From NCBI GenBank assembly GCA_000995965.1, contig LBYD01000001.1, positions 279,040-343,039 of the forward strand: a stretch of 64,000 nt of DNA, read 5' to 3'. Shown piece by piece: positions 6,031 to 61,191 of this stretch. The DNA comes from Candidatus Moranbacteria bacterium GW2011_GWC2_40_12 (GTDB lineage: Bacteria > Patescibacteriota > Minisyncoccia > Moranbacterales > UBA11712). The position numbers and the translations under genes are program-made. Within the stretch, counting starts at the first letter, position 1. Every line of letters starts with the position of its first letter. The notes beneath the pieces were generated by a model that was given only the letters and a program-made list of their open reading frames with translations, had not been told where the DNA came from and made no database searches.

Positions 6031-7917
6031 TCAGCGGCTGCTTAGGCTCTCTTTAATCAGGCTCCGCACTTCCGCAAGATTCACCTGCTTTCTTGGCCGC
6101 TCGTTTCTTTCCCGCTTGAATTGCCGTGGCGGCATTTTTGACGCTTCACGAAGAGTAACAGTTCTTTGCGGCTGAAATCTTTCATTTCGCGGCTCTCTTT
6201 GATCGTTTGCGGCTCGGCTGCCTTGCGACTGCTGGATCTTGGCCTGCTGGCGCTGATAATCCTTGAGGCAGTCTTTGCAAAAAGTGGGCCGGGATCCGTC
6301 CGGCTTGAAGGGTACTTCTATGTCTATGTCGCAGCTCGCGCACTTGGCCGCATACATTTGCCTGCCGGAGTCGTTTCGCCCGCCTGCTTCGACTCGCGAA
6401 GCATTTCGGGCAGGTGAAGCTTTGCCGGCGGGACGATTGACGCCCGCAACGACCGCTTTTTGATTTTCGCCGGAACTTTTGATTCGTCTTGCGTCTTCCG
6501 CTTTGGCCGGCGGTTTTATTTTTTTCCCGACGATGTCATTTTTCATGTTTTTAGGGATTGAATTTGTTTGCTTGTCTTTCGTCCTTAGCTCTCTGATGAT
6601 ATTTTTCTGGCTGGCCAAATCTTTTTCAGTTACCATCCCGCTCCAGCGGGCGATTTTGTCTTCAACAATTTCCCGATCCGTCCCATACCGCTCCCGCGTG
6701 ATGCGAATCACTTTTTCTTCATTTTCCAGCGTTTTCGAAAGGTCAAACGGCGGAAGTGTCGAGGCTGAAAAAGCGTTTCCGGCTATTCCGTCAATCATCA
6801 GCTTTATATAAATTTGCCGGTTTGGAAGATTCACGAGATCCTGGATGACAAATACCGGCTCAAATTCCTTCTCCAGGAATTCGGCATCTTCTGCCCCGAC
6901 CCTGAAAACGCAAAGTGTCCCGACGTTCCCAAAAACCGCGTCTCGAACCCTCGTTGACGTATCCGTCACCAGCTGGCCGATATACTGATGGGCAATAATC
7001 AAATTAAGGTGATATTTTCTCGCTTCAGACAGAATATTGGCAAACGAATCAGTCGCGAAATTTTGGAATTCATCAACATACAAATAGAAATCTTTTCGCT
7101 CTTCTTCCGGAACATCCACCCGGGCCATGGCGGCCAGCTGAATTTTGGTGATCATCATCGCCCCGAGGAGAGCGCTGTTATCTTCGCCTATCCGGCCTTT
7201 GGAAAGGTTCATGACGAGAACTTTTCCCTGGTCCATCAGCTCGCGGATGTTGAAAGCCGATTTTGTTTGCCCGACAATGTTCCGGATAAGGGCGCTCGAA
7301 AGGAATTGACCGACTTTGTTTTGAATCGGCGAAATCACTTCTTGAAGGACCCGCTCATTCCATTGGGTGAATTCATCCACCCAGAACGACCTGACAACGG
7401 GATCGGAAATTTTTTCGACAACGCGCGCCCGGTAATGTTTATCAACCAGAATGCGGGTAACTCCCAAGAGTGTGCTGCCCGGATATTCCAGAAGTGCCAA
7501 AATAGCATTGCGAAGAATGTATTCGAGTCTTGGCCCCCATGAATCCGCCCAAATTTTTTTGAACACTCCGACCAGTCCCGATGCAATGAGATGCCGGTAT
7601 TCCGTGTCAACTTTTTCCATCACGTTGAATGCGATGGGATATTCCTGATCGGCCGGATTGAAATAAATGATGTCGTTTATCCGGTTGGAGGGAATCGATT
7701 TGATGACGGTTTCGGCAAACTCGCCGTGCGGATCAACGATTGCCACGCCCCGGCCGCTGTGGATATCCTGTATTGCCATATTTTGGATCATGGTGGTTTT
7801 TCCGGTTCCGGTTTTCCCGACAACATAAAAGTGCCGGCGCCGATCGTCGGTTTTGATTCCAAAAACCCTGTCCTGCCCGCGGAAATTTGTTTTAGCGAAT
7901 GTTGTGATCTCGTTCAT
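6031..7917 (-). CDS. P-loop ATPase of the T4SS DNA-binding-domain / VirD4-TraD-TraG-like (FtsK-HerA superfamily) with basic C-terminal tail and Cys4 zinc ribbon
   Basis: Walker A VVGKTGTGKTT after HFYV; DEFQNF Walker-B-like; C-terminal CASCD...CKDC ribbon and R/K-rich tail. Confidence 0.7.
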   Translation of the reverse strand: MNEITTFAKTNFRGQDRVFGIKTDDRRRHFYVVGKTGTGKTTMIQNMAIQDIHSGRGVAIVDPHGEFAETVIKSIPSNRINDIIYFNPADQEYPIAFNVMEKVDTEYRHLIASGLVGVFKKIWADSWGPRLEYILRNAILALLEYPGSTLLGVTRILVDKHYRARVVEKISDPVVRSFWVDEFTQWNERVLQEVISPIQNKVGQFLSSALIRNIVGQTKSAFNIRELMDQGKVLVMNLSKGRIGEDNSALLGAMMITKIQLAAMARVDVPEEERKDFYLYVDEFQNFATDSFANILSEARKYHLNLIIAHQYIGQLVTDTSTRVRDAVFGNVGTLCVFRVGAEDAEFLEKEFEPVFVIQDLVNLPNRQIYIKLMIDGIAGNAFSASTLPPFDLSKTLENEEKVIRITRERYGTDREIVEDKIARWSGMVTEKDLASQKNIIRELRTKDKQTNSIPKNMKNDIVGKKIKPPAKAEDARRIKSSGENQKAVVAGVNRPAGKASPARNASRVEAGGRNDSGRQMYAAKCASCDIDIEVPFKPDGSRPTFCKDCLKDYQRQQAKIQQSQGSRAANDQREPRNERFQPQRTVTLREASKMPPRQFKRERNERPRKQVNLAEVRSLIKESLSSR

Positions 7918-14336: not shown

Positions 14337-14996
14337 TTATTCGATTATTAATTTTTCCATCTCCTTTTTGTCTTTTATAGAAACCAGCGATTCTTCCGCA
14401 AATTTTCGATAATCTTCCCCATTTTTGAAATCATCCAAAATCACGCGTTTTTCTCCGCAAAACGTCTTTTCTGAAAAATTATCCGTATATTCCCTCCAAC
14501 TTGAAATCGACTTGGAAACTAAGTTTCCAAGTGAATGGACACGGTCATTGAGATTCACGTAGGCGCTTAAGTGCAACAGATAGCTGTTTGTTTTTATATG
14601 GACTGCTTTGAATGTTCCCTGGAAAAGAGAACCAGAGCGCTCGTGCCTCTTGTTGAAATATTTTGTATAACCTATTCCGAGACGGTGCATGAATTTCTCA
14701 ATGCCCTGCTCGGCTGTCTGTTTGAGAATGAAATGATAGTGGTTAGGATTCAGGCAAAAACACACGAAACCGACCAATTTCTTTTTGGATTTGTTCTTTT
14801 CTTTTCTGTCGCGAAAAAAATTTTCATATATGCTTCCGATCGGATCAAGCGTATTGAATTCATCCATACTCTGAAGAAATCTCCGCATATCCAATTGATC
14901 ACTGAAAATTTCCCGCTTGTCCACTCCGCGATTGAAAATGTGGTAATATTCGCCTTCAGCCAATTGTATTTTTCTCATAGCTGGATTATAGCACAA
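14337..14996 (-). CDS. IS200/IS605-family Y1 (HuH) transposase, REP-associated tyrosine transposase-like (RAYT-1)
   Basis: EYYHIFNRG..., HuH motif NHYHFIL, conserved Y in YLLHLSAYVNLN, SGSLFQGTFK; flanked by PE-A palindromes on both sides and contains one in-frame. Confidence 0.8.
   Translation of the reverse strand: MCYNPAMRKIQLAEGEYYHIFNRGVDKREIFSDQLDMRRFLQSMDEFNTLDPIGSIYENFFRDRKEKNKSKKKLVGFVCFCLNPNHYHFILKQTAEQGIEKFMHRLGIGYTKYFNKRHERSGSLFQGTFKAVHIKTNSYLLHLSAYVNLNDRVHSLGNLVSKSISSWREYTDNFSEKTFCGEKRVILDDFKNGEDYRKFAEESLVSIKDKKEMEKLIIE
14510..14532. repeat. PE-A palindrome copy inside RAYT-1 coding sequence (in-frame, encodes LGNLVSKS)
   Basis: ACTTGGAAACTAAGTTTCCAAGT. Confidence 0.85.
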
Positions 14997-15840: not shown

Positions 15841-16109
15841 AGCCACTTCCTCCCTTTTTGCCTTTCGGCAGAAAATTCCCTCTCGATGAGAGGGGCCAAA
15901 CAATTTTCAAATAATGCTGCTATGGATAAAAATTAACATCTGCAAAAATCCTGTCAATGGGGAAAATTTATCAAAAAACAAAATTGACACTCTGTAAAAA
16001 ATGTTTACTTAAAAGATTTTTCTTATATTCCGATGGACAAAAAGGATATCCTAAGCGTAGAATAGAATAAAGGAAATTTTTCTCAATAAAATCTAAGGAG
16101 GTGCGCTCA

Positions 16110-16973
16110 ATGAAGCGCGAAAGCGAACTTTTTTTACTGGCAATTATTTTGGTGACAATTGCCTTTTCGGCAGGCTGCGTCGGACCCATCCATGAGATGG
16201 AAAAAAGCGGATTAGTCCAGCTTCAAACCGCAGCTCCTATCTCTGCTCGGCCGGGAGGAAAGTATGTCTACGTTAACTGCCGCGACGGGACGGGCAATAA
16301 TCTCGACATCCAGAATCGAGTCATTTCCTTGATTCGCTCGCGGGGATATATTTCCGTCAGCGACCCGAAGTTGGCTGACTACCAGCTCACTGGCGGTCCT
16401 AATTCCATCAGTTATCAGCAAGACCGTTCTCGGACGACCGGCGGGGGACAAGCTATTGGAGCGCTTATGCTGGGTGCTTTGGCCGGAGGACTTGTTGGGG
16501 GATTTACGGGAAATGCCGGCCTTGCAACCGCTGCTGCCATCGGCGGAGCAGCCGCGGGAGCAGCTATTGGAGGAACTGCGGAAGCCCACGCTGCGCCGGG
16601 AATTGTCATTGCTTCGGTAAACATCCGGATTGATGAACGGATCAATTTTTTGAGCGAAAGACAAGCCAAACTGCCCCAACCTATCCAAAAAGTCCGGAAA
16701 GTGAAAAAAACTCTGAAGTCCGGAAAAAAAGTATGGGTGACAGAGGACATCACTGAAACCGAAGACGCTGAAACTCCGGTGAAATCCACCGTTGCTGCGG
16801 CTCAATCCGGCGCTGGTGCTACCACAGTAGTCACTGATCGCCGGGTGGCTGATTTTGTTCCTCATCAGGCGACTTTCGAGGTCAAGCATGTAGTGGAATC
16901 TTCCACGCCGGCTGACCAAATAAAAAATCTGCTGGCGGAAAAAATCGCCGCTGCCATTGCCAACATTCTCTAG
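16110..16973 (+). CDS. traT: TraT-like outer-membrane lipoprotein (complement-resistance / surface-exclusion family)
   Basis: lipobox LVTIAFSAGC; Gly/Ala-rich central segment; C-terminus ...AEKIAAAIANIL closely resembles TraT C-terminus (...LAKSIANIL); SD AAGGAGG 7 nt upstream; about 58% GC. Confidence 0.75.
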   Translation: MKRESELFLLAIILVTIAFSAGCVGPIHEMEKSGLVQLQTAAPISARPGGKYVYVNCRDGTGNNLDIQNRVISLIRSRGYISVSDPKLADYQLTGGPNSISYQQDRSRTTGGGQAIGALMLGALAGGLVGGFTGNAGLATAAAIGGAAAGAAIGGTAEAHAAPGIVIASVNIRIDERINFLSERQAKLPQPIQKVRKVKKTLKSGKKVWVTEDITETEDAETPVKSTVAAAQSGAGATTVVTDRRVADFVPHQATFEVKHVVESSTPADQIKNLLAEKIAAAIANIL

Positions 16974-18952: not shown

Positions 18953-19282
18953 TCATAGATTCCTGCCTGCAGGACAGTATTTATTGCGCTTTTTAAGACG
19001 CGGAGAACTGGCCGTAGCACCGCATAGCTTGCAGAGATTATCCCGCTGTTGATAATTATGCCGCAGATTTCCCTGCCCGCTGAAATACAGCATGGACAAG
19101 AGAGAGCCGCGTGTTGGGTAAAGACGTTTGATCTTGCATTGCTGCCGGCGCTGACATTTATCACAGGAAGCAATTTCACCTTCCTTATTGAAATCGCAAC
19201 CGACTAGAGAAAATCCACACCTTGCCAACGCGCAAAAGCCCAACGTTAGCGGTCTTCCCAAAATATTTCTTCTTTTTGCCAT
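18953..19282 (-). CDS. small cysteine-rich protein A (109 aa)
   Basis: SD AAGGAGG 7 nt before ATG; C-x4-C-x6-C-x10-C-x2-C pattern resembling the ORF at 39991-40242. Confidence 0.5.
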   Translation of the reverse strand: MAKRRNILGRPLTLGFCALARCGFSLVGCDFNKEGEIASCDKCQRRQQCKIKRLYPTRGSLLSMLYFSGQGNLRHNYQQRDNLCKLCGATASSPRLKKRNKYCPAGRNL

Positions 19283-19362: not shown

Positions 19363-20418
19363 TCAAAACTTTTTCAACTCCTTCATAAACTCTTTGAGCA
19401 GATTTTTCTCCTCGACTTTTCTCAAAATTTTTCCCTTTTTGCAAATGAGCCCGACGCCTTCGCCGCCGATGACCGCGAGATCCGCTTCGCGCGCTTCGCC
19501 CGGTCCGTTCACCACGCACCCCATCACGGCCACGTGGATATTTTTATCCACGCCTTCGACCATTTTTTCCACTTTTTCCGCCAAACTTATCAAATCAATT
19601 TTTGTCCGCCCGCAAGTCGGGCAGCTTGTCACTGTGATTCCGCGTTTTCGAAGCCCCAATGATCGCAAAATTTCCCATGATACCTTCACTTCCTCGACTG
19701 GATCGGCCGTCAAAGATACGCGGATTGTATCACCAATGCCTTCGTAGAGCAAGTGGCCGATCCCAATAGACGACATTATCGTACCACGGAAAATGGTTCC
19801 CGCTTCGGTGATTCCGAGATGCAAAGGATAATCCACTTTTCGGCTCAAAAATTTATAGCTCTCGACCGTCCGCTCAATATCTGACGCTTTGAGTGAGATT
19901 ACAATATCCCTAAATTTTAGTTTTTCTAATATTTTTATATGCCGCATCGCCGATTCAACCATCCCTTCAGCCGTCACTTTATTTTTGTGCTTCGCGAGAA
20001 TATCTTTTTCAAGCGAACCCGCGTTCACCCCGATCCGGATGGGAATTTTTTTCTTCCGGCAGGCCGCGACGACAAGACCCACTTTTTCAACCGAACCAAT
20101 ATTCCCGGGATTAATCCGCAATTTGTCCACTCCCTGCTTCACGGCTTCCAGCGCCAACTCGTGCGAAAAATGAATGTCCGCCACGAGCGGAATGTTTATC
20201 CTTTTCTTTATTTTTCCCAATACTTTCGCCGCCGCCATATCCGGCACAGCCACGCGAATGATTTCACACCCCGCTTTTTCTAGTTTTTTTATCTGCGCGA
20301 TTGTCCCGGCGACATCCTCTGTTTTTGTGTTCGCCATCGACTGCACCGCCACCGGCGCGTCGCCACCGATGAAAATTTTCCCGACTTTTATTTTTTTGGT
20401 TTTTCGGCGTTTGATCAT
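19363..20418 (-). CDS. ispG: 4-hydroxy-3-methylbut-2-en-1-yl diphosphate synthase IspG (GcpE)
   Basis: KIFIGGDAPVAVQSM..., C-terminal Cys cluster; start placed at MIKRRK (TATAAT just upstream) rather than the 105-aa upstream extension in the ORF track. Confidence 0.9.
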   Translation of the reverse strand: MIKRRKTKKIKVGKIFIGGDAPVAVQSMANTKTEDVAGTIAQIKKLEKAGCEIIRVAVPDMAAAKVLGKIKKRINIPLVADIHFSHELALEAVKQGVDKLRINPGNIGSVEKVGLVVAACRKKKIPIRIGVNAGSLEKDILAKHKNKVTAEGMVESAMRHIKILEKLKFRDIVISLKASDIERTVESYKFLSRKVDYPLHLGITEAGTIFRGTIMSSIGIGHLLYEGIGDTIRVSLTADPVEEVKVSWEILRSLGLRKRGITVTSCPTCGRTKIDLISLAEKVEKMVEGVDKNIHVAVMGCVVNGPGEAREADLAVIGGEGVGLICKKGKILRKVEEKNLLKEFMKELKKF

Positions 20419-20488
20419 ACACTTAATATTATACAAATCCGGAAAAAAGAAAAGGGCAGCCCTCCATGGCCGCCCCGGGGAATCTAAA

Positions 20489-20692
20489 TTATTTTTCTCT
20501 AACCTTGCTTCTTGCGGGCTGACGTATCTTTGCCACATAGCCCTGGCTGACGCCGTCTTTGGGATTCTTGGAGTTCTCCTTTTTTTCACACCTCTTAGTC
20601 CTATCACAGTTATTACACTCCGTATACCCTTTCCTGCGATAGCAATATTCAGTTCCCGTAAAAATACAACGAAACCATAATGATTCTGCCAT
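20489..20692 (-). CDS. small cysteine-rich protein B (68 aa), downstream member of tandem pair
   Basis: SD GGAGGG 4 nt before ATG; CIFTGTEYC...CNNCDRTKRC. Confidence 0.5.
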   Translation of the reverse strand: MAESLWFRCIFTGTEYCYRRKGYTECNNCDRTKRCEKKENSKNPKDGVSQGYVAKIRQPARSKVREK

Positions 20693-20702
20693 GTTTCCCT
20701 CC

Positions 20703-20885
20703 TCAAAATAATGGTGGCTGTCTCTTTTTGCACTTGTCACAGATAGTTTTTCTTGTCCGATCGTTTTCCTCCGCGCCGCATGTCTTTGGATCAAGATCGC
20801 ATTCGGCGCATTCACTGAGTCCGGACTCGTCTTCACAGGAGAGATTCCTCCCGCAAACACAACATTTCTCAGTCAGAGTTTTCAA
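20703..20885 (-). CDS. small cysteine-rich protein C (60 aa, TTG start), upstream member of tandem pair
   Basis: SD AAGGAGG 6 nt before TTG; four CxxC-like pairs (CCVCG, CEDESGLSEC, CAEC, CDKC). Confidence 0.5.
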   Translation of the reverse strand: MKTLTEKCCVCGRNLSCEDESGLSECAECDLDPKTCGAEENDRTRKTICDKCKKRQPPLF

Positions 20886-21054
20886 AGTTCCTCCTTATAA
20901 TGTAATCATAAACATTTGGATATTTACGATTAATTTTGTATTTTCCTGCCAATTTCATATCATATTTTCACCCTAAAAGTCAAACTACGACATATTTTTT
21001 AATGAATATATCAACAATAATTATGCTATAGCATAATTATTGTCTATGGACATT

Positions 21055-23850
21055 TTAGGATTGAGATTTATTTTTACTTTCCGCTTTTCTTGCTTCCTCG
21101 AATATGAATACGGCCAGAGTCGCTCCGATCACCACCAGCCAGTCCCAAAAATCAATTGGCGACATATGAAGATATTTTTGAAAAAATGGAATATACATAA
21201 ACGCCAGAAGCATTCCCACTGAAATGAAAATTGAACCGATAAGCCACCTGTTCTTGAAAAATCCGATTTTGAAAACAGAGAGTTTTTCGCTTCTCGCTTG
21301 CATCAAATTGGCCATCTGGGTCATCGAGAGCACCGCATATGTCACCGCCGTCGATTTGATATAGAGCGCTGAACTGAAATCTATTTTTTCTCCGAAATTC
21401 CATCCGCCTCTTTTCATAGACCAGAGAAAGGCTACAATAGCTCCTGTCGCCATGATGAACCCGATATAAAAGAGCCGCCCGAAACCAAAACTCCCAATTA
21501 GCCGCTCGTTGGGATCAAATGTTTTTCTTTTCGTATTTCCCGCCTGCCTGCCCGTTGGCAAGGTTTCGGCCGGCTCGACGCCAAGCGCCAGCGAAGGAAA
21601 TACGTCTGTTCCAAGATCGATCGCAAGAATTTGCACTGCCGTGATGGGAGCCGGAATCATAAACAGGGTTCCGAAAATGACCGTCAAAAATTCGCTGGCG
21701 TTCGAAGAAAGGACATAATAGATGAATTTGCGAATATTTTGATAAATTGTCCTCCCTTCTTTGATTCCGGCAACAATTGAAGAGAAATTATCGTCAAGGA
21801 GAATCATGTCCGAGGCTTCCTTGGAAACATCTGTGCCGATTATTCCCATTGCCACTCCGACATCCGCCTTCTTGAGAGCTGGCGCGTCATTCACTCCGTC
21901 TCCTGTCATCGCTATAACCGCTCCCGATTTTTTGAGAACCGATGCTATGCGCAGTTTTTGCTCGGGAGTGATGCGGGCAAAAACCGAAGCGCCATTTTTA
22001 ATTCGCTTAACAATTTCATTGTCTGGCAAAGTATTCAATATCTTGCCATTAATCACAAAATTATCCGAATTATCAATTGCGAATTTCGAATTACTGCGCA
22101 AAAGATTCACCTTTTGCGCTATCGCTCTCGCTGTCACCTCATAGTCACCTGTTATCATAATCACTTTTATTCCCAATTGCTGGCATTCTTCAATGGCTTT
22201 GGCAACATCGGCTCTCGGCGGGTCAATCATCGCCATCATTCCGACCCAAATCAAATTTTTTTCGGATTCTTTTTTGCAATCGTTTTTATTATAGTTTTCG
22301 AGTGGGCAATAGGCGAAAGCCAAGACCCGAAGCGCTTGTGAAGACATCCGGTCATAAATTTCTTTTGTCTTCTTCTTTTCTTCATCTGAAAAGGGGACTA
22401 TCCCCTCCCTGGTCAATTTTTTGGGGGAGAGGCTCAAGAGAACATCCGGCGAACCCTTAATATACGAAAATATTCCATCCTTACTTCCTTGATTTCCATT
22501 GTTTTTTTCATAAATAACGCTCATGCGCATCCGTTCCGATTCGAACGGATTTTCGTCAACTTTTCGCTCCCCTGCCCCGAAATATTTCTCATCCGGATTA
22601 TATTTCCTCGCCGCGACAATCAGCGCCCCCTCTGTCGGATCGCCAATAATTTTATAATCTTCGCCTTCTTTCTCCAGGCTCGCGTCATTGCAAAGCGCGC
22701 CGATTTTGAGAATTAGGCCCAGGTTCTGAATCTTTTTCGGATCGATCGGCTTGCCATTCACAAGAAATTTTCCAGCCGGCCTGTATCCCTCCCCGCTCAC
22801 CTCGATTTCTTTCTCATCCAAAACAATTTTGGTCACCATCAGCTCATTTTTGGTGATTGTTCCCGTTTTGTCCGTGCAAATGATATTTATCGATCCGAGT
22901 GTTTCGACCGCAATCAATTTTTTTACTAGCACATTTTCCTTCATGAGCCTTCGCATCCCAAGTGAAAGAGCGACTGACATGGCCGCCGGCAGTCCTTCCG
23001 GAACCACCGAGACCGCAACCGCAAGCGCGAAAAGGAAATTCTGATACCAGGAAAGATGCTGAAATCCTCCGGCAACAAGTACCAGAACCGCGATCACCAT
23101 CGCCAAAATCGAAATATCCCTCCCAAGGGTGCGCATTTTTTTCTGAAGCGGGGTCAATTCATCCGCCACTTCTGTTGCGAGCTCGGCGATTTTTCCGAGC
23201 TCTGTTTTTATCCCCGTTGCAACGACAACCGCTTTTGCCTCGCCCTTCGTCACCTGTTCTCCAGTAAAAACCATATTTTCAATGTCCGCTATTGGAAGAC
23301 TTTCTTCAGCGATCAGTTTCGCTTCCTTTCGCTCCGGTTTTGACTCTCCCGTGAAAACAAAACTGTTCGTGTGGAGATTGTAGCTTTCGAGAATATGTCC
23401 GTCCGCCGGGACATTGTCGCCTGAAGCCATAAAAATTATGTCTCCCGGCACAATTTCACTGGCATCAATTTCTTTTTTTCGGCCATTGCGGATAACCGTC
23501 GCTTTGTCAGATGCCAGTTTTTGGATCCGATCCATAATCCGCTCTGCTTTCCATTCCTGAGAAAAACCGATTATCGAGTTAATAAGGATAATGATCAGAA
23601 TGATTGTCACGTCCTTCATTTCTCCAAACGCCAAAGCCAAAACAGCCGCTATCAGCAAGATCCATACCAATGCGTCATTGAATTGGTGCAAAACCAGCTT
23701 TGCCCATCGCCATCTCTCACGTTTTTCAATTTTGTTCGAACCGTATTCTCTCAATCGATTCCCGGCTTCCTCATCCGAAAGCCCGCCCAAATTCGTCCCA
23801 AACTTCCCCAAAACCTCTTCCGCGCTCAAATTGTATATTTGTTTTTCCAT
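21055..23850 (-). CDS. cation-transporting P-type ATPase (type II, Ca2+/Mg2+-like)
   Basis: ICTDKTGTITKN phosphorylation motif, MTGDGVNDAPALKKADVGVAMG, TGES, 10 TM. Confidence 0.9.
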   Translation of the reverse strand: MEKQIYNLSAEEVLGKFGTNLGGLSDEEAGNRLREYGSNKIEKRERWRWAKLVLHQFNDALVWILLIAAVLALAFGEMKDVTIILIIILINSIIGFSQEWKAERIMDRIQKLASDKATVIRNGRKKEIDASEIVPGDIIFMASGDNVPADGHILESYNLHTNSFVFTGESKPERKEAKLIAEESLPIADIENMVFTGEQVTKGEAKAVVVATGIKTELGKIAELATEVADELTPLQKKMRTLGRDISILAMVIAVLVLVAGGFQHLSWYQNFLFALAVAVSVVPEGLPAAMSVALSLGMRRLMKENVLVKKLIAVETLGSINIICTDKTGTITKNELMVTKIVLDEKEIEVSGEGYRPAGKFLVNGKPIDPKKIQNLGLILKIGALCNDASLEKEGEDYKIIGDPTEGALIVAARKYNPDEKYFGAGERKVDENPFESERMRMSVIYEKNNGNQGSKDGIFSYIKGSPDVLLSLSPKKLTREGIVPFSDEEKKKTKEIYDRMSSQALRVLAFAYCPLENYNKNDCKKESEKNLIWVGMMAMIDPPRADVAKAIEECQQLGIKVIMITGDYEVTARAIAQKVNLLRSNSKFAIDNSDNFVINGKILNTLPDNEIVKRIKNGASVFARITPEQKLRIASVLKKSGAVIAMTGDGVNDAPALKKADVGVAMGIIGTDVSKEASDMILLDDNFSSIVAGIKEGRTIYQNIRKFIYYVLSSNASEFLTVIFGTLFMIPAPITAVQILAIDLGTDVFPSLALGVEPAETLPTGRQAGNTKRKTFDPNERLIGSFGFGRLFYIGFIMATGAIVAFLWSMKRGGWNFGEKIDFSSALYIKSTAVTYAVLSMTQMANLMQARSEKLSVFKIGFFKNRWLIGSIFISVGMLLAFMYIPFFQKYLHMSPIDFWDWLVVIGATLAVFIFEEARKAESKNKSQS

Positions 23851-23880: not shown

Positions 23881-24528
23881 TTATTCTAGTAAATATTTCT
23901 CCCTTTCCTTTTTCTCTTTCATATACAAAGAATTTTCTTTTATAAATTCTCGATATTCATTCTTATTTTTAAATTCATTAAGAATAACACCTGTGTCACA
24001 AATCCCCCCGTTTCTTTTCCCAGTATAATCTAAAAAACTGGAATATGGCCAGTCAAAATCGTCACCGTATCCATGAATAAAATAGTTTTTGTTAACATAG
24101 GCTGATAAATAAAGAAGATGTGCGTTTGTCCTTATACGGATCGATTTAAATTTCCCCTGAAACAATACTCCGGATCTTTTGTAATGATAGTTGAAATAAT
24201 TTGTATAACCGCCTCCGAGCCTTTTCATATATTCAGAAATTCCATGTTCTGTTGATTGTTTTAAGATCAAGTGAAAATGATTCGGATTAAGACAATAACA
24301 TATGATTTCAACTAATTTTTCCATTCGTAGGTGTCCGACACCTACGTCTTGCTTTCTTTCTTGCTGACTGTGCCTATACAAGCTATGGATAGGATCAATT
24401 TGGTTAAATTCTTTCATGGACGTTAAAAATCGATTATAGTCTCTGTTGGATAAAAAAACTTTCCGTTTTTCAACGCCACGGTTATAAATGTGGTAATATT
24501 CATTGACATCTAGGGGTTGTTTTCTCAT
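23881..24528 (-). CDS. IS200/IS605-family Y1 transposase, RAYT-like (RAYT-2), paralog of 14337-14996
   Basis: EYYHIYNRG, NHFHLIL (HuH), YLLYLSAYVNKN, SGVLFQGKFK; own palindrome PE-B on both flanks and in-frame (VGVGHLR). Confidence 0.8.
   Translation of the reverse strand: MRKQPLDVNEYYHIYNRGVEKRKVFLSNRDYNRFLTSMKEFNQIDPIHSLYRHSQQERKQDVGVGHLRMEKLVEIICYCLNPNHFHLILKQSTEHGISEYMKRLGGGYTNYFNYHYKRSGVLFQGKFKSIRIRTNAHLLYLSAYVNKNYFIHGYGDDFDWPYSSFLDYTGKRNGGICDTGVILNEFKNKNEYREFIKENSLYMKEKKEREKYLLE
24326..24346. repeat. PE-B palindrome copy inside RAYT-2 coding sequence (in-frame)
   Basis: CGTAGGTGTCCGACACCTACG. Confidence 0.85.
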
Positions 24529-39990: not shown

Positions 39991-40242
39991 TTATGCGCCC
40001 AGGAGCTGCGCCCGGGAGCAATAGGTGGTCTGCAGAGCCAGGCAGCCCTTTTCAACGTTGAGGCTTTTGCAGGCTGACCCCGCGCAGTTTTTGGGATGAA
40101 AGTTATACCCCTTGATGAAATTCGCCAAACTGCAGTAACTCGCTTGCCCCGCCGTACAGCCGACTGCCCAACTAAACAAGTAGCATTTTGAGAAAAGGCA
40201 GTTCACGGGAAGAGTATTTTTCGGTATTATCCTTTCATTTCT
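39991..40242 (-). CDS. small cysteine-rich protein D (84 aa), downstream member of tandem pair; Cys spacing like protein A
   Basis: SD GGGAGG before ATG (MRRNERI); CLFSKCYLFSWAVGC...C...GYNFHPKNCAGSAC. Confidence 0.5.
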   Translation of the reverse strand, partial: RNERIIPKNTLPVNCLFSKCYLFSWAVGCTAGQASYCSLANFIKGYNFHPKNCAGSACKSLNVEKGCLALQTTYCSRAQLLGA

Positions 40243-40258
40243 TCTCATACCATCCTCC

Positions 40259-40441
40259 CTAATATTTCGCCCGGCCATCGTGGGCAAGTTCGTCTTTGGG
40301 AACACTGTAGCAATTGCATTTTCCCTTACCGACTATTTCCAATACTTTTCCTTCTAGGGCAATCTTGCAGAAACCAAGCTGATTCTTATTTCCGCACTTT
40401 GCCGTGCATTTGAAAGAAATACTATCTTCTCCCTTGCTCAT
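40259..40441 (-). CDS. small cysteine-rich protein E (60 aa), upstream member of tandem pair
   Basis: SD AGGAGA before ATG; FKCTAKCGNKNQLGFCK...KCNC. Confidence 0.5.
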   Translation of the reverse strand: MSKGEDSISFKCTAKCGNKNQLGFCKIALEGKVLEIVGKGKCNCYSVPKDELAHDGRAKY

Positions 40442-44082: not shown

Positions 44083-44406
44083 TCACTTCATATTTGGAGG
44101 CCTGTTTGTTTTCCAATTCCTTGGAGGAATTGGAGGAATGGGGTTCTTCGGCGTAGTGTTGCGGTCGCTTTCGCAACACGCGAAGCAGTGATAATCACGC
44201 CAAGTTGCTTTTCCCGATAGAATGCGTTCGATTTTCGTCCACGCCAGGGTTGTTTCACATCCCTCCGTGTCGCATTTCATTGGCGGCAAATCATGCGAAA
44301 TGTGCTTTTTGGCAGCCTCGGGCGAAGCATAAATCGATTGATCAACTCCGCCAGAGCTCTTCCGGGCGGGAAGTGAAGTGCTCCATCCTTTATCTTGATT
44401 TTGCAT
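44083..44406 (-). CDS. small cysteine-rich protein F (107 aa), downstream member of tandem pair
   Basis: SD AAGGGAG before ATG; CDTEGCETT...HCFACCES; Pro-rich tail. Confidence 0.45.
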   Translation of the reverse strand: MQNQDKGWSTSLPARKSSGGVDQSIYASPEAAKKHISHDLPPMKCDTEGCETTLAWTKIERILSGKATWRDYHCFACCESDRNTTPKNPIPPIPPRNWKTNRPPNMK

Positions 44407-44417
44407 CTATCTCCCTT

Positions 44418-44651
44418 CTAATTGGTGGTTTTCGGAAAAGGATCGCCGAAAGCCGTGCAGCATGCCCCCGTGCAGCGAGCTTGCCCCAGCTGAATGGCAT
44501 TTACTTCTTCTGGCGAAAGTTCTCTTGTTGATCTCCCGCCGCTATGAAGCCTCTTGCCTTCCCACGTGCCTCCGAAGAAATCAAGTTTCTTGATTTCTTC
44601 CAAATCCGTGAGTTCACTTTCTCTTGGGATACTGGCACAACCAGATCCGAC
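44418..44651 (-). CDS. small cysteine-rich protein G (77 aa; start at second Met), upstream member of tandem pair
   Basis: SD AAGGAGGTG 7 nt before ATG (MVGSGCAS...); CTGACC near C-terminus. Confidence 0.45.
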   Translation of the reverse strand, partial: VGSGCASIPRESELTDLEEIKKLDFFGGTWEGKRLHSGGRSTRELSPEEVNAIQLGQARCTGACCTAFGDPFPKTTN

Positions 44652-44759
44652 CATGAGATTCACCTCCTTTTGATTTGAAATCATAAAAGCTTAGCATAAA
44701 GAAAAGCTTTGTCAATATCGTTGATATTTTATATCTTCTCTCTTATTTCTTACATCCCT

Positions 44760-58831: not shown

Positions 58832-59407
58832 TTGTGGATAACTAAAATGAAAAATAATAATTTGTTTTTTAAAGCTTTTATCAAAAATCCTCGCCAAGTT
58901 GGCGCTTTGAAGCAAACTTCAAATTTTGTAATCAAGGAAATTGTTAAGTCAATAGATTTCGAGAAAGCTCGCTGTCTGGTCGAGTTAGGAGGCGGAATGG
59001 GCAATATCACTAAAAAAATAATAAATAAAATGCATCCGGAATGCATTTTATTTTGCTTTGAGATTGATCCAATTTTAGCGAAGCATCTTGCGGAGAAAAT
59101 CCAAGATAATCGGGTGAGAATAATTTCAGACAGTGCTGAAAATATTGGAAAATATCTGCTCCAATCAAATATAGAACGGGTGGATTATGTCATTTCAACT
59201 GTTCCGCTAACAACTATTCCTTATCGCAAAATGAAAGAAATTTTGAAATTATCCTTCCAGTACCTTCGAGGCGGAGGAAAATATATCCAGGTGCAATATT
59301 CACTTCTGGGGCGCCGCTATCTGCGGATGCTATTCCCAAAAATTGGCGTCAACTTTGTTTTCCTCAACATACCGCCGGCTTTTGTTTATATTTGTGTGAA
59401 AAATTAG
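58832..59407 (+). CDS. class I SAM-dependent methyltransferase (small, rRNA/phospholipid MTase-like)
   Basis: VELGGGMGNITKKI glycine-rich SAM motif. Confidence 0.65.
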   Translation: MWITKMKNNNLFFKAFIKNPRQVGALKQTSNFVIKEIVKSIDFEKARCLVELGGGMGNITKKIINKMHPECILFCFEIDPILAKHLAEKIQDNRVRIISDSAENIGKYLLQSNIERVDYVISTVPLTTIPYRKMKEILKLSFQYLRGGGKYIQVQYSLLGRRYLRMLFPKIGVNFVFLNIPPAFVYICVKN

Positions 59408-60459
59408 CCGACTTTCTCCCACGGGAACTCGTCTCGCCCGAAATGGCCGTAAGCGGCTGTTTTTTTGTATATCGGCCGGCGCAAATCAAGTTTTTTGATA
59501 ATAGCATTCGGTTTGAAATCGAATCTTTCTTCAACCGCTTCGCGAATACTCTCGCCTTTTTCATTGAGGGCCTCAACCATGAGAGGCTCCGCTCTTCCAA
59601 TCGCGTATGCGACAGAAACCAGGCATTCCCTGGCCTTCCCCTCAGAAACGAGAGTTTTCGCCACGTAGCGGGCCATATACGCGGCGCTGCGATCCACTTT
59701 TGTCGGATCTTTTCCCGAAAAACATCCTCCGCCATGCGGAATGAGTCCGCCGTAAGTATCGACCATAATTTTTCTGCCGGTAAGTCCCGTATCGCCCTCG
59801 AATCCGCCAATGGCAAATTTGCCGGTGGGATTCACCAGAATTTCAATGCCGGAAATATCGCCGGAAATGGGTTTGACCAATTTTTCAATGAGAGCTTTTC
59901 GAATTTCTTCCTGGATGATATTTTCGTCGTGCTGGGTGCTGATGAGAATTGACCGAACTTTTCCTCCCCTCGTTTCATCTATTGTCACCTGAGCCTTCCC
60001 GTCCGGACCGAGCCATGCAATTTCCCCGCTGGTTCGCAAATTTTCAAGGCCTTTTGTCAGCTTGTTCACCAAAACTACACCGTGCGGAAGAAGTTCCGGC
60101 GTCTCATCCGTCGCGTAGCCATACATAATTCCCTGATCGCCCGCTCCGCCAGTGTCCACGCCTTGGGCAATGTCCGGCGATTGCTTCACGACGTTCGTGA
60201 TGACTTTTATGTCCTTCATATAGCCAATTTCTTTATAAACATCCCGCGCGACTTTTTCAAAGTCCACTTTTGCTTTGGTAGTCACTTCTCCTCCGACAAT
60301 CAAAAGGCCGTGGCCACCGAAGGCTTCCATTGCCACCCGGCTCATCGGATCCTGCTCGAGACACGCGTCCAAAATCGCGTCCGAAATCTGGTCGCAAATT
60401 TTGTCCGGATGCCCGGCTGTCACGCTTTCGACTGTGTAGATCTTTGGTTTGTAGATCAT
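59404..60459 (-). CDS. metK: S-adenosylmethionine synthetase
   Basis: GHPDKICDQISDAILDACL, GGGAFSGKD-like motifs. Confidence 0.9.
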   Translation of the reverse strand: MIYKPKIYTVESVTAGHPDKICDQISDAILDACLEQDPMSRVAMEAFGGHGLLIVGGEVTTKAKVDFEKVARDVYKEIGYMKDIKVITNVVKQSPDIAQGVDTGGAGDQGIMYGYATDETPELLPHGVVLVNKLTKGLENLRTSGEIAWLGPDGKAQVTIDETRGGKVRSILISTQHDENIIQEEIRKALIEKLVKPISGDISGIEILVNPTGKFAIGGFEGDTGLTGRKIMVDTYGGLIPHGGGCFSGKDPTKVDRSAAYMARYVAKTLVSEGKARECLVSVAYAIGRAEPLMVEALNEKGESIREAVEERFDFKPNAIIKKLDLRRPIYKKTAAYGHFGRDEFPWEKVG

Positions 60460-60465
60460 TTCTAT

Positions 60466-60611
60466 TTCATTAAAAATAAAATCTTCCGCATAGGAAGATA
60501 AGAAATTTATATCTTTCCCTTGCGGGCTAGAGGTAGCACCACGTCTAATAAAAATTAGATTGGTTGCTGGCAGGTCGCAGGGCTAGTTCCCTCGCTGCGC
60601 TCTTGATACTC
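60466..60611 (-). promoter_or_regulatory. SAM-I (S-box) riboswitch with terminator expression platform in the metK leader
   Basis: minus-strand AUCAAGAG-CGCAGCGAGGGAACUAGCCCUGCGACCUGCCAGCAACC...GGUGCUACCUCUAGCCCGCAAGGGAAAGAUA matches SAM-I core; followed by AUCUUCCUAUGCGGAAGAU + UUUAUUUUU just before ATG. Confidence 0.7.
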
Positions 60612-60699
60612 GCCCCGACCTTAATGCGTCGGGGCTTTATTCAATTTTCGAAAGATATATGTATTATAGCGTTTTATATATTCGAGTCAAGGACAATAG

Positions 60700-60772
60700 T
60701 GGACCCGAGGGGATTCGAACCCCTCGCCTCCTCGGTGCAAACGAGGCGCTCTACCAAATGAGCTACGGGCCC
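60700..60772 (-). tRNA. tRNA-Ala (anticodon UGC)
   Basis: cloverleaf folds; G3:U70 identity pair; anticodon loop UUUGCAC. Confidence 0.85.
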
Positions 60773-60789
60773 AAATATACAGTTTATCT

Positions 60790-60860
60790 TGTAAGGCTGT
60801 AAAACAAAAAAGGCGCTCGGACCCTGTCCGCCTTTGGCGGAAAATGAGCTACGGGCCCGC
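60790..60860. repeat. element upstream of tRNA-Ala: conserved hairpin (GGCGCUCGGACCCUGUCCGCC) plus direct copy of the first 20 nt of tRNA-Ala
   Basis: aaaatgagctacgggcccgc at 60841-60860 duplicates tRNA 5' end (60753-60772). Confidence 0.6.
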
Positions 60861-60877
60861 AAACCTAGTTCAAGATG

Positions 60878-60990
60878 CAAAAATCAAAATGAAAAATTTT
60901 GGTGTTCGCTTCGCTCACTTATTTTTAAAAAATAATCATCGCGAAGCGATACATTAATTTTGCACTTTTAATTTTGAATTTTCAATTTAT
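60878..60990. repeat. about 110-bp dispersed repeat with inverted TCGCTTCGC/GCGAAGCGA arms (copy 1)
   Basis: about 85% identical to 63068-63175. Confidence 0.7.
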
Positions 60991-60994
60991 TATG

Positions 60995-61068
60995 TGGGCG
61001 ATCGAGGATTCGAACCTCGGACCTCGTCATTATCAGTGACGCGCTCTAACCAACTGAGCTAATCGCCC
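60995..61068 (-). tRNA. tRNA-Ile (anticodon GAU)
   Basis: cloverleaf folds; anticodon loop CUGAUAA. Confidence 0.85.
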
Positions 61069-61118
61069 AAAGTTTGTTTCTTGCTACGTAGTTTGTTACG
61101 TAACGAGGTAAGTAAATG

Positions 61119-61191
61119 TGGGTCGTGCAGGGATCGAACCTGCGACCATCAGCTTAAAAGGCTGCTGCTCTACCAACTGAGCTAACGACCC
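61119..61191 (-). tRNA. tRNA-Lys (anticodon UUU)
   Basis: cloverleaf folds; anticodon loop CUUUUAA. Confidence 0.85.

Follow-up and report, generated by a model that had tools for sequence, protein, structure and literature searches.

Genes 1A and 1B, a tandem pair of selected, lineage-restricted small cysteine-rich genes upstream of ispG in a Candidatus Moranbacteria genome

The closest known counterparts of the two small cysteine-rich open reading frames (ORFs) described here, 1A and 1B, which lie upstream of ispG in Candidatus Moranbacteria bacterium GW2011_GWC2_40_12, are the C(P)XCG zinc-finger µ-proteins of Haloferax volcanii, which number about 49 (PMC11241148). One of these, HVO_2753 (PDB 6YDH, Pfam DUF1610/HVO_2753_ZBP), binds just one zinc with its four knuckles (PMC11241148), and so makes a useful comparison for 1A with its eight invariant cysteines and 1B with five. 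We analysed 1A and 1B within a window of 64,000 nucleotides (nt; positions 279,040 to 343,039 of contig LBYD01000001.1, assembly GCA_000995965.1) and in related lineages, whose loci or contigs are designated by L numbers. The likeness to the µ-proteins is one of kind, not of homology. Both groups are shorter than 70 amino acids (aa), carry CxxC-type knuckles (two to four in the µ-proteins), belong to sets of many unrelated copies per genome and mostly have no assigned function; the folds of the µ-proteins are metal-stapled, as those of 1A and 1B may be. Unlike the µ-proteins, 1A and 1B belong to a bacterium of the Candidate Phyla Radiation (CPR) and are probable tandem paralogues; they have no significant sequence relationship to 6YDH (E = 3.1) and no Pfam match, and of the three knuckles in 1A a single one has the form CxxCG and none the form CPxCG.

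Three further groups invite comparison. Zinc-ribbon ribosomal proteins (eL42/L44e, bL33, bL36) are likewise small, basic and of the Cys4 zinc-knuckle type, and 1A has a C-terminal knuckle, RTRKTICDKCKKRQPP, that looks like the one of eL42, KTRRTYCKKCKKHQPH, in a match that is not significant (E = 0.47); a core ribosomal component would not be expected to occur in a few close lineages only and to be lost or replaced from one to the next, as 1A and 1B are. DUF1540 (PF07561) of Firmicutes is built of tandem ~30-aa four-cysteine modules, as are the repeat in 2B, another small ORF of the window, and an ORF that follows rplL in a relative (L112); the latter gives one sub-threshold match to DUF1540 (E = 0.11), and 2B, 1A and 1B give none. 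Bacterial metallothioneins (SmtA/BmtA) resemble 1A in size (~55-60 aa) and in a cysteine content of ~15%.

Selection on the 1A and 1B reading frames

Nearly all genes of the window are tightly packed on the minus strand, and 1A and 1B, on that strand too, sit between a P-type ATPase gene (21055-23850) and ispG (19363-20412). Judged from their substitution patterns, both are genuine, selected protein-coding genes. Syntenic orthologues of 1A, also between the ATPase gene and ispG, occur in the lineages L007-L009 (80% identity) and L010 (73% identity), with a dN/dS ratio (omega) of 0.07-0.10 at dS ~1.3; the neighbouring ispG (omega 0.06-0.07) and polX (0.06-0.09) are as constrained as 1A. The third codon position of the 1A frame takes 25 of 36 substitutions between the window and L007, and 26 of 42 and 24 of 40 in the other two comparisons; pN/pS is ~1-1.9 in the alternative frames of the region. 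The TTG start is kept in all three lineages and the Shine-Dalgarno (SD) sequence is conserved too, conservation is distributed over the full length of the protein, and eight of the nine cysteines (C8, C11, C17, C26, C29, C36, C49 and C52) are invariant. Contigs of the same species are 100% identical and hence uninformative on selection.

For 1B, a word-indexed search returned its own cluster alone, and the single orthologue (lineage L189-L194, on ten contigs from several samples) was reached via a variant within the same 90% cluster. It is identical at 64 of 65 residues and stops two codons earlier; nine synonymous changes stand against one non-synonymous change, giving an omega of 0.02 and, by our own arithmetic with 157 of 195 sites non-synonymous, a binomial p of ~3e-6 against L189, whose IspG protein is 86% identical at dS ~1.0. 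The first-pass annotation of this DNA made the case for the pair depend on conservation in close relatives and on purifying selection, and both are found, with 1A present in two sister lineages and 1B in a third.

Exact matches at the protein level assign the window to Candidatus Moranbacteria genomes from groundwater (Rifle and others). In GenBank and NCBI protein sets 1A is not annotated, and 1B is called as an ORF of 123 aa (or in variants of 108-115 aa) that begins at a GTG at 20860 and runs through 1A in another frame. Because of the substitution pattern of the region, the two-ORF reading is the correct one, and the annotation is corrected in that 1A has been omitted and 1B over-extended. 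The members of the pairs and the singleton discussed below bear the label 'hypothetical protein' wherever they are annotated.

The two genes appear to form a bicistronic unit composed of a predicted, conserved extended -10 promoter, a leader, a strong SD sequence, both ORFs and a predicted intrinsic terminator (Table 1). In an alignment of the leader and promoter region, TTGAC[T/A] ... TG-n-TAT[A/G]AA and a subsequent TGGCAG are kept in four lineages (the window, L007, L010 and L001/L189), and the 5' leader of 1A contains conserved blocks. RNAalifold gave no meaningful structure for the conserved leader (-2.4 kcal/mol) and no covariation, and neither leader nor locus matches an RNA family in Rfam at gathering or E-value thresholds. 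The first-pass annotation described tandem ORFs 10 nt apart with strong SD sequences, the first with a TTG start and AAGGAGG, and the sequence bears this out: the gap is exactly 10 nt, and the SD sequence of 1B, GAGGAGGG (20704-20697), overlaps the TGA stop of 1A, an arrangement of the kind usually associated with translational coupling, which may operate here. Its ORF length of 60 aa stands for 1A, and the 68 aa given for 1B counts the stop codon. Downstream of 1B, the terminator-like hairpin GGGGCGGCCATGGAGGGCTGCCCT is followed by the T-run TTTCTTTTTT; L007, L010 and L189 have an equivalent hairpin after the ORF in the second (B) position.

Relatedness and turnover among sister lineages

1A and 1B align colinearly over almost their full length with 33% identity. 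The cysteines C8/C9, C17, C26, C29 and C36/C35 coincide, as do G12, G22, an EN and a K-RQP motif; 1B lacks C11, C49 and C52. In 20,000 composition-preserving shuffles, this similarity has p = 4.5e-4 for 1A against 1B and p = 1.5e-4 for the L007 orthologue of 1A against 1B. We consider with moderate confidence that the two probably arose as tandem paralogues within one lineage-restricted family and then diverged. The singleton S, on the other side of ispG, has only a weak local likeness to 1A, in the CDKCxxRQ of the C-terminal knuckle of the latter (shuffle p = 0.006, hhalign P = 0.007). Paralogy among the three tandem pairs of the window was tested and rejected, as no sequence similarity was detectable between any two of them.

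The four lineages compared upstream of ispG are roughly equidistant, their IspG proteins being 86-88% identical, and they differ in what this slot contains. The window lineage has 1A and 1B; L189-L194 has 1B alone, straight behind the same promoter and leader; L007 has 1A followed by a 90-aa cysteine-rich ORF, and L010 has 1A followed by one of 103 aa. These B-position ORFs of L007 and L010 are related to each other and have no significant similarity to 1B. The B-position ORF that L007 has upstream of ispG has a homologue of 68 aa in L189, on the downstream side of ispG (z = 8; shared YxGDPDNP...PPF...C), and thus small cysteine-rich genes change slots too. Sister lineages contain 1A without 1B or 1B without 1A, and the two therefore do not make up an obligate module. 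The first-pass annotation had proposed a recurring functional two-gene module and suggested looking at co-occurrence across related genomes; the loci themselves exist as it described them, in the two-gene layouts of pairs 2 and 3 and the singleton at 18953-19282, but the module does not hold up, because the pairs are mutually dissimilar, the slots of pairs 2 and 3 hold anything from no ORF to two, and 1A and 1B are not inherited together.

The slots of pairs 2 and 3 vary similarly, with zero, one or two small ORFs in close relatives; at the loci where an orthologue of 2B, 3B or 3A is found, the partner ORF is missing or another ORF stands in its place, and in several relatives the slots are empty or contain an insertion sequence (IS) element. 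2B has an orthologue in L110 (53% identity, all eight cysteines kept, omega ~0.33 at saturated dS). The orthologue of 3A in L120 is 50% identical over 40 aa and retains the ARCxGACC motif, and that of 3B in L113/L114 is 43% identical over 61 aa and retains C-x4-C and the downstream cysteines. For 2A there is no significant homologue: comparison with the first-slot ORFs of L110, L112 and L106 gave no significant homology, the ORF in the same slot of L110 (60 aa, four cysteines) having a similarity of p = 0.27. Nor was there significant homology between 3B and the second ORF of L120. No orthologue of S was found in the sister lineages, where other small ORFs fill its slot.

1A and 1B are absent from relatives with IspG identity of 83% or less, some of which have other small ORFs in the slot. 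By this distribution, the two genes are confined to a narrow, roughly genus-level clade of uncultured Moranbacteria, and they appear to belong to a larger, fast-turnover set of unrelated or barely related small cysteine-rich genes that occupy intergenic slots and move between them.

Several contents of these slots in relatives are of separate interest. In RIFOXYB1_FULL_43_19, an 87%-identical relative, an IS1595-family transposase (L107 4117-4659) splits yjbQ at the slot of pair 3, and neither 3A nor 3B is present. In a relative with 70% identical IspG, two tandem ORFs of 55 and 47 aa with strong SD sequences lie directly upstream of ispG (L030 1306-1647); they are not cysteine-rich, so the slot is reused. 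A 54-aa ORF with nine cysteines and the SD sequence AAGGAGG adjoins ispG in an 83% relative (L026 11575-11739, minus strand) and has no significant similarity to L189S, the only small ORF with which it was compared. L189 (5678-5959) and L190 have, between a small cysteine-rich ORF and polX, a 93-aa ORF of the GIY-YIG nuclease family (Pfam E = 3e-13), flanked in L189 by inverted repeats of ~20 nt, cccggtagtacaacttcgag and ctcgaagttgtactaccggg; the window lacks this insertion, which has the look of a small mobile element.

Finally, the scaffold L001 (scaffold_266 in ENA) has no 1A. To the right of the 1B start it is 99.8% identical to the window, and to the left ~74%, matching the L189-type lineage; the junction lies at the 5' end of 1B, where L001 9868-10020 corresponds to ~20680-20712 of the window. 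L001 was rejected as a deletion variant, and is better described as a mosaic of an L189-type sequence (left) and the window species (right), produced by recombination or by chimeric assembly.

Small cysteine-rich loci and other features of the window

Cysteine content is 0.7% in the large ORFs of the window and 4.7-15% in the seven small ORFs (Table 1). A scan of the window for intergenic ORFs with an SD sequence of at least 5 nt recovered six of the seven cysteine-rich ORFs, missing 3B. It also returned 1B in an extended form, in frame, and three ORFs that are 28-56 aa long and have zero to two cysteines. SD-preceded cysteine-rich small intergenic ORFs have a density of ~8-11 per 100 kb in this window, 3.6 per 100 kb in nine loci of Moranbacteria relatives, 1.8 per 100 kb in 80 loci of other Parcubacteria-like relatives and 0.5 per 100 kb in 1.2 Mb of non-CPR loci, where the matches, judged from their sequences, resemble proteins of the CsoR, CopZ and bL33 types. 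The density thus declines with distance from this genome, and the local enrichment is ~15- to 20-fold. Among the individual loci, S has a promoter-like site (19348-19321) and a terminator-like hairpin (18931-18910) of its own, and 2B is an internal duplication of a ~30-aa four-cysteine module, NC-x4-C-x8-GC-x3-Q-x2-YCS-x-A.

Table 1. Predicted elements of the 1A-1B unit and other small cysteine-rich ORFs of the window (pI, isoelectric point)
Feature	Position	Strand	Length	Cysteines	Properties
ORF 1A	20703-20885	minus	60 aa	9	TTG start 20885-20883; SD AAGGAGG 4 nt before start; pI 5.4
ORF 1B	20489-20692	minus	67 aa (68 codons with stop)	5	ATG start; pI 9.6; basic C-terminal tail
Promoter-like site of 1A-1B	20954-20983	minus			-35 TTGACT 20983-20978; 18-nt spacer ending in TG; -10 TATGAA 20959-20954
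5' leader	20886-20953	minus	~60 nt		ends in SD AAGGAGG (20896-20890)
Intrinsic-terminator-like hairpin and T-run 3' of 1B	20443-20476	minus			hairpin 20476-20453, GC-rich
Singleton S	18953-19282	minus	109 aa	9	pI 10.1; SD AAGGAGG; downstream of ispG
ORF 2A	40259-40441	minus	60 aa	5	
ORF 2B	39991-40248	minus	85 aa	8	10 nt from 2A
ORF 3A	44418-44654	minus	78 aa	4	C-terminal C-x3-CC motif; 11 nt from 3B
ORF 3B	44083-44406	minus	107 aa	5	C-x4-C ... HC-x2-CC motif; Pro-rich tail; SD GGGAG

Elsewhere in the window, two copies of a ~215-aa protein related to IS200-like Y1 transposases (14337-14996 and 23881-24528, minus strand) bracket the block that contains the ATPase gene, the small ORFs, ispG and polX, and are kept in relatives; they could be domesticated transposases or transposases associated with repetitive extragenic palindromes (REP). 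A TrwB/TraG-like coupling ATPase with a treble-clef zinc finger (6031-7917, minus strand) and, on the opposite strand, a TraT-like gene (16101-16973, plus strand) represent conjugation-type functions in a CPR genome. An S-adenosylmethionine (SAM) riboswitch (Rfam RF00162, 47.1 bits; 60506-60612, minus strand) lies directly upstream of metK (59404-60459), and tRNA-Ala, tRNA-Ile and tRNA-Lys genes are found at 60699-61191.

Probable nature of the proteins and alternative readings

Scans of all seven peptides against Pfam, NCBIfam, PHROGs and PADLOC gave nothing significant; 1A has no Pfam or NCBIfam match at E-values up to 10, and 1B has only an irrelevant one to MGC-24 (E = 0.037). A profile search of the PDB likewise gave nothing significant (E = 0.47 and above), and the only sub-threshold hints in the databases are the zinc knuckles of eL42 and HVO_2753/DUF1610 mentioned above; nine small ORFs of relatives, scanned against Pfam, gave sub-threshold hints of zinc-ribbon type only. 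The word-indexed search, which covered 5.8e9 proteins, returned three clusters for 1A, a HMMER profile search of 1.84e9 representative proteins found nothing outside the 1A family and cluster, and scans of viral contigs with the 1A profile, 1B and 2B found no relatives. Literature searches on small cysteine-rich proteins of Moranbacteria, Patescibacteria or the CPR brought up nothing of relevance.

Zinc-ribbon and C(P)XCG proteins are recognized by at least two CxxC motifs, ideally CPxCG, within fewer than ~70 aa and in positions from which they can build a Cys4 site. 1A has three, C8-x2-C11 (followed by G), C26-x2-C29 and C49-x2-C52, in addition to C17 and C36. 1B has C9, C17, C26, C29 and C35, that is, a single CxxC (C26-x2-C29) and three lone cysteines, and so shows the feature only in part; the first-pass annotation, which assigned six to nine cysteines in CxxC-like spacing to each ORF, was right about 1A with its nine and overstated 1B. 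Its suggestion of zinc-ribbon-like, metal-binding proteins is nevertheless the most reasonable reading of the invariant cysteine pattern of 1A. From their cysteine patterns, we take 1A and 1B to be probably metal-binding mini-proteins, and on balance we lean, to a modest degree, towards the fuller reading that they are lineage-restricted, fast-turnover, metal-stapled small cytoplasmic cysteine-rich proteins encoded by two selected genes. Such polypeptides would be too small to fold unaided, and metal ions bound by the cysteines would staple small, zinc-ribbon-like β-hairpin folds. In 1A, the eight invariant cysteines (three CxxC knuckles and two single cysteines) would suffice for two Cys4 sites; in 1B, the five retained positions would suffice for one metal site, and the basic, probably disordered tail that it gained would be fit for binding nucleic acid or an acidic partner. 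1A is acidic overall and highly charged, with a basic C-terminal knuckle. Inspection of the sequences reveals no N-terminal hydrophobic signal in 1A or 1B. AlphaFold2 (AF2) models, of low confidence, have short β-strands beside the cysteines and many β-hairpins around them, and leave the K/R-rich tail of 1B without secondary structure. Proteins of this type usually serve as small binding or regulatory adaptors, a role that 1A and 1B may share.

Several observations weigh against this reading or parts of it. Metal binding is read from the cysteine pattern only, and among 14 purified Haloferax C(P)XCG proteins five were zinc-free, AlphaFold2 being unable to separate binders from non-binders (PMC11241148). 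The AF2 models of 1A and 1B (predicted local distance difference test scores of 39.7 for 1A with a four-sequence alignment and 50.5 for 1B as a single sequence) are unreliable and too poor for a fold comparison. The profile-profile comparison of 1A with 1B is weak (hhalign P = 0.018, probability 2.5%), and codon-usage coding scores of both are below those of typical window genes, in part since cysteine codons are rare in the latter. The dS of 1B (window 20489-20692 against L189 4001-4198) is 0.29, ~3-fold below that of the flanking ispG and polX (~1.0), and 1B is the best-conserved stretch of the region, with 92-97% nucleotide identity against ~80% in ispG. This suggests a recent exchange between lineages or an extra constraint at the nucleotide level; an exchange of the 1B segment is plausible because the low dS is joined by the switch of L001 at the 5' end of 1B, and part of the conservation of 1B could then reflect recent recombination rather than long-term constraint.

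The position beside ispG invites the view that 1A and 1B upstream and S downstream are iron-sulfur or redox mini-proteins that deliver electrons to, or assist the maturation of, the [4Fe-4S] enzyme IspG. This is unlikely. Conventional electron carriers are few in this genome, which is part of the premise, and pyruvate:ferredoxin oxidoreductase and ferredoxin genes lie within ~10 kb; small cysteine-rich ORFs adjoin ispG in five lineages (the window, L007, L010, L189 and L026), and 1A carries a C-x2-C-x5-C spacing that is also present in some [4Fe-4S] ligand sets, those of WhiB-like proteins. Yet each of 1A-1B, ispG and S seems to be transcribed separately, with a promoter-like site and a hairpin to itself, and relatives with 70-83% identical IspG have no such upstream ORF. 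The ferredoxin (CxxCxxCxxxCP) and rubredoxin (CxxCG...CPxCG) motifs are absent from 1A and 1B, for which the first-pass annotation had also considered a redox pair, and no Fer4 or rubredoxin family of Pfam is matched even at E = 10. Adjacency to ispG is moreover not special, since unrelated small cysteine-rich ORFs also adjoin rplL and yjbQ. The neighbour on the other side, the cation P-type ATPase, raises the thought of metallothionein-like buffers that sequester Zn, Cu or Cd, which we judge quite unlikely. Bacterial metallothioneins have a cysteine density comparable to the 15% of 1A and are likewise fast-evolving and lineage-restricted, and the slot lies immediately downstream of the ATPase gene in four lineages. 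However, the ATPase is of the P2 type by Pfam (Cation_ATPase_N, Cation_ATPase_C) and not a heavy-metal P1B pump, no metallothionein family is matched, and the cysteine spacing differs: apart from C8-C9, the cysteines of the highly charged 1A are spaced as regular CxxC knuckles and not in the CxC/CC clusters of the SmtA type, and 1B is cysteine-poor, with just five in 67 residues.

The high turnover and variable slots, the enrichment specific to this Moranbacteria clade and the DsbA-like oxidoreductase, SecA/SecDF and PilX-like genes in the window would also suit secreted or host-directed effectors of an episymbiotic lifestyle, comparable to eukaryotic effector and defensin repertoires; this is rather improbable, as neither a signal peptide nor a transmembrane segment is seen in the sequences of 1A, 1B, 2A, 3A and 3B, S alone has a weak, Arg-interrupted lipoprotein-like N-terminus, and 1A is constrained within the clade like a housekeeping gene, with no diversifying selection. 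A toxin-antitoxin-like or defence/anti-defence cassette, in which the acidic 1A would neutralise the basic 1B, is about as improbable. It would account for the close coupling of two small genes in pairs 1 and 3, the first encoding an acidic and the second a basic protein, for their variable presence among close relatives and for several unrelated copies per genome; against it, searches of Pfam, NCBIfam and PADLOC recognise no toxin or antitoxin domain in 1A or 1B and PHROGs gives no match, the putative toxin 1B is alone, intact and under purifying selection in L189-L194, the two are apparent paralogues, unlike toxin-antitoxin pairs, and viral contigs yielded no relatives. The first-pass annotation also entertained two-peptide precursors, and tandem short cysteine-rich peptides, with a GG motif and a Cys/Thr-rich C-terminus in 3A, could recall two-peptide bacteriocins or ribosomally synthesized and post-translationally modified peptides (RiPPs). 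The context largely refutes this reading, which retains only a slight probability: no RiPP maturase, radical-SAM enzyme, YcaO, LanB/C/M, protease or C39-ABC exporter is encoded in the window or the syntenic loci, no precursor family of NCBIfam or Pfam is matched, and conservation of 1A along its whole length is not split into leader and core. Spurious ORFs in an untranslated or regulatory region, which the low codon-usage scores and the uncalled status of 1A in GenBank records might suggest, have a probability close to nil and were rejected, being refuted by the frame-specific substitution patterns and low dN/dS of both ORFs; the conserved SD sequences and start codons and the lack of an Rfam match or conserved RNA structure also stand against them.

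Read as small, probably metal-stapled proteins, 1A and 1B add new families, restricted to their lineage, to a kind of protein that is already known, and no new mechanism emerges from them. More interesting is the genome-wide pattern of locally enriched small cysteine-rich genes, independently transcribed by prediction, with quick turnover, shuffling between slots and partial absence from annotation. One could speculate, with a low chance of being right, that Moranbacteria and perhaps other episymbiotic CPR bacteria have an expanded repertoire of fast-turnover, metal-stapled micro-proteins as a toolkit for host interaction or for regulation of a minimal proteome. Each gene, with its own promoter, strong SD sequence and terminator, would occupy an intergenic slot, be shuffled between slots and be exchanged between lineages by recombination; if true, the repertoire would be a bacterial parallel to the small cysteine-rich effector families of eukaryotes and to the zinc-finger µ-proteome of haloarchaea. 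In the tiny genomes of CPR bacteria a large fraction of genes lacks an assigned function, and some of the smallest 'hypothetical' ORFs among them are as constrained as housekeeping genes, though confined to one clade. If they are metal-binding regulators or host-interaction factors, 1A, 1B and similar genes would open a way into the lineage-specific biology of episymbionts that have not been cultured.

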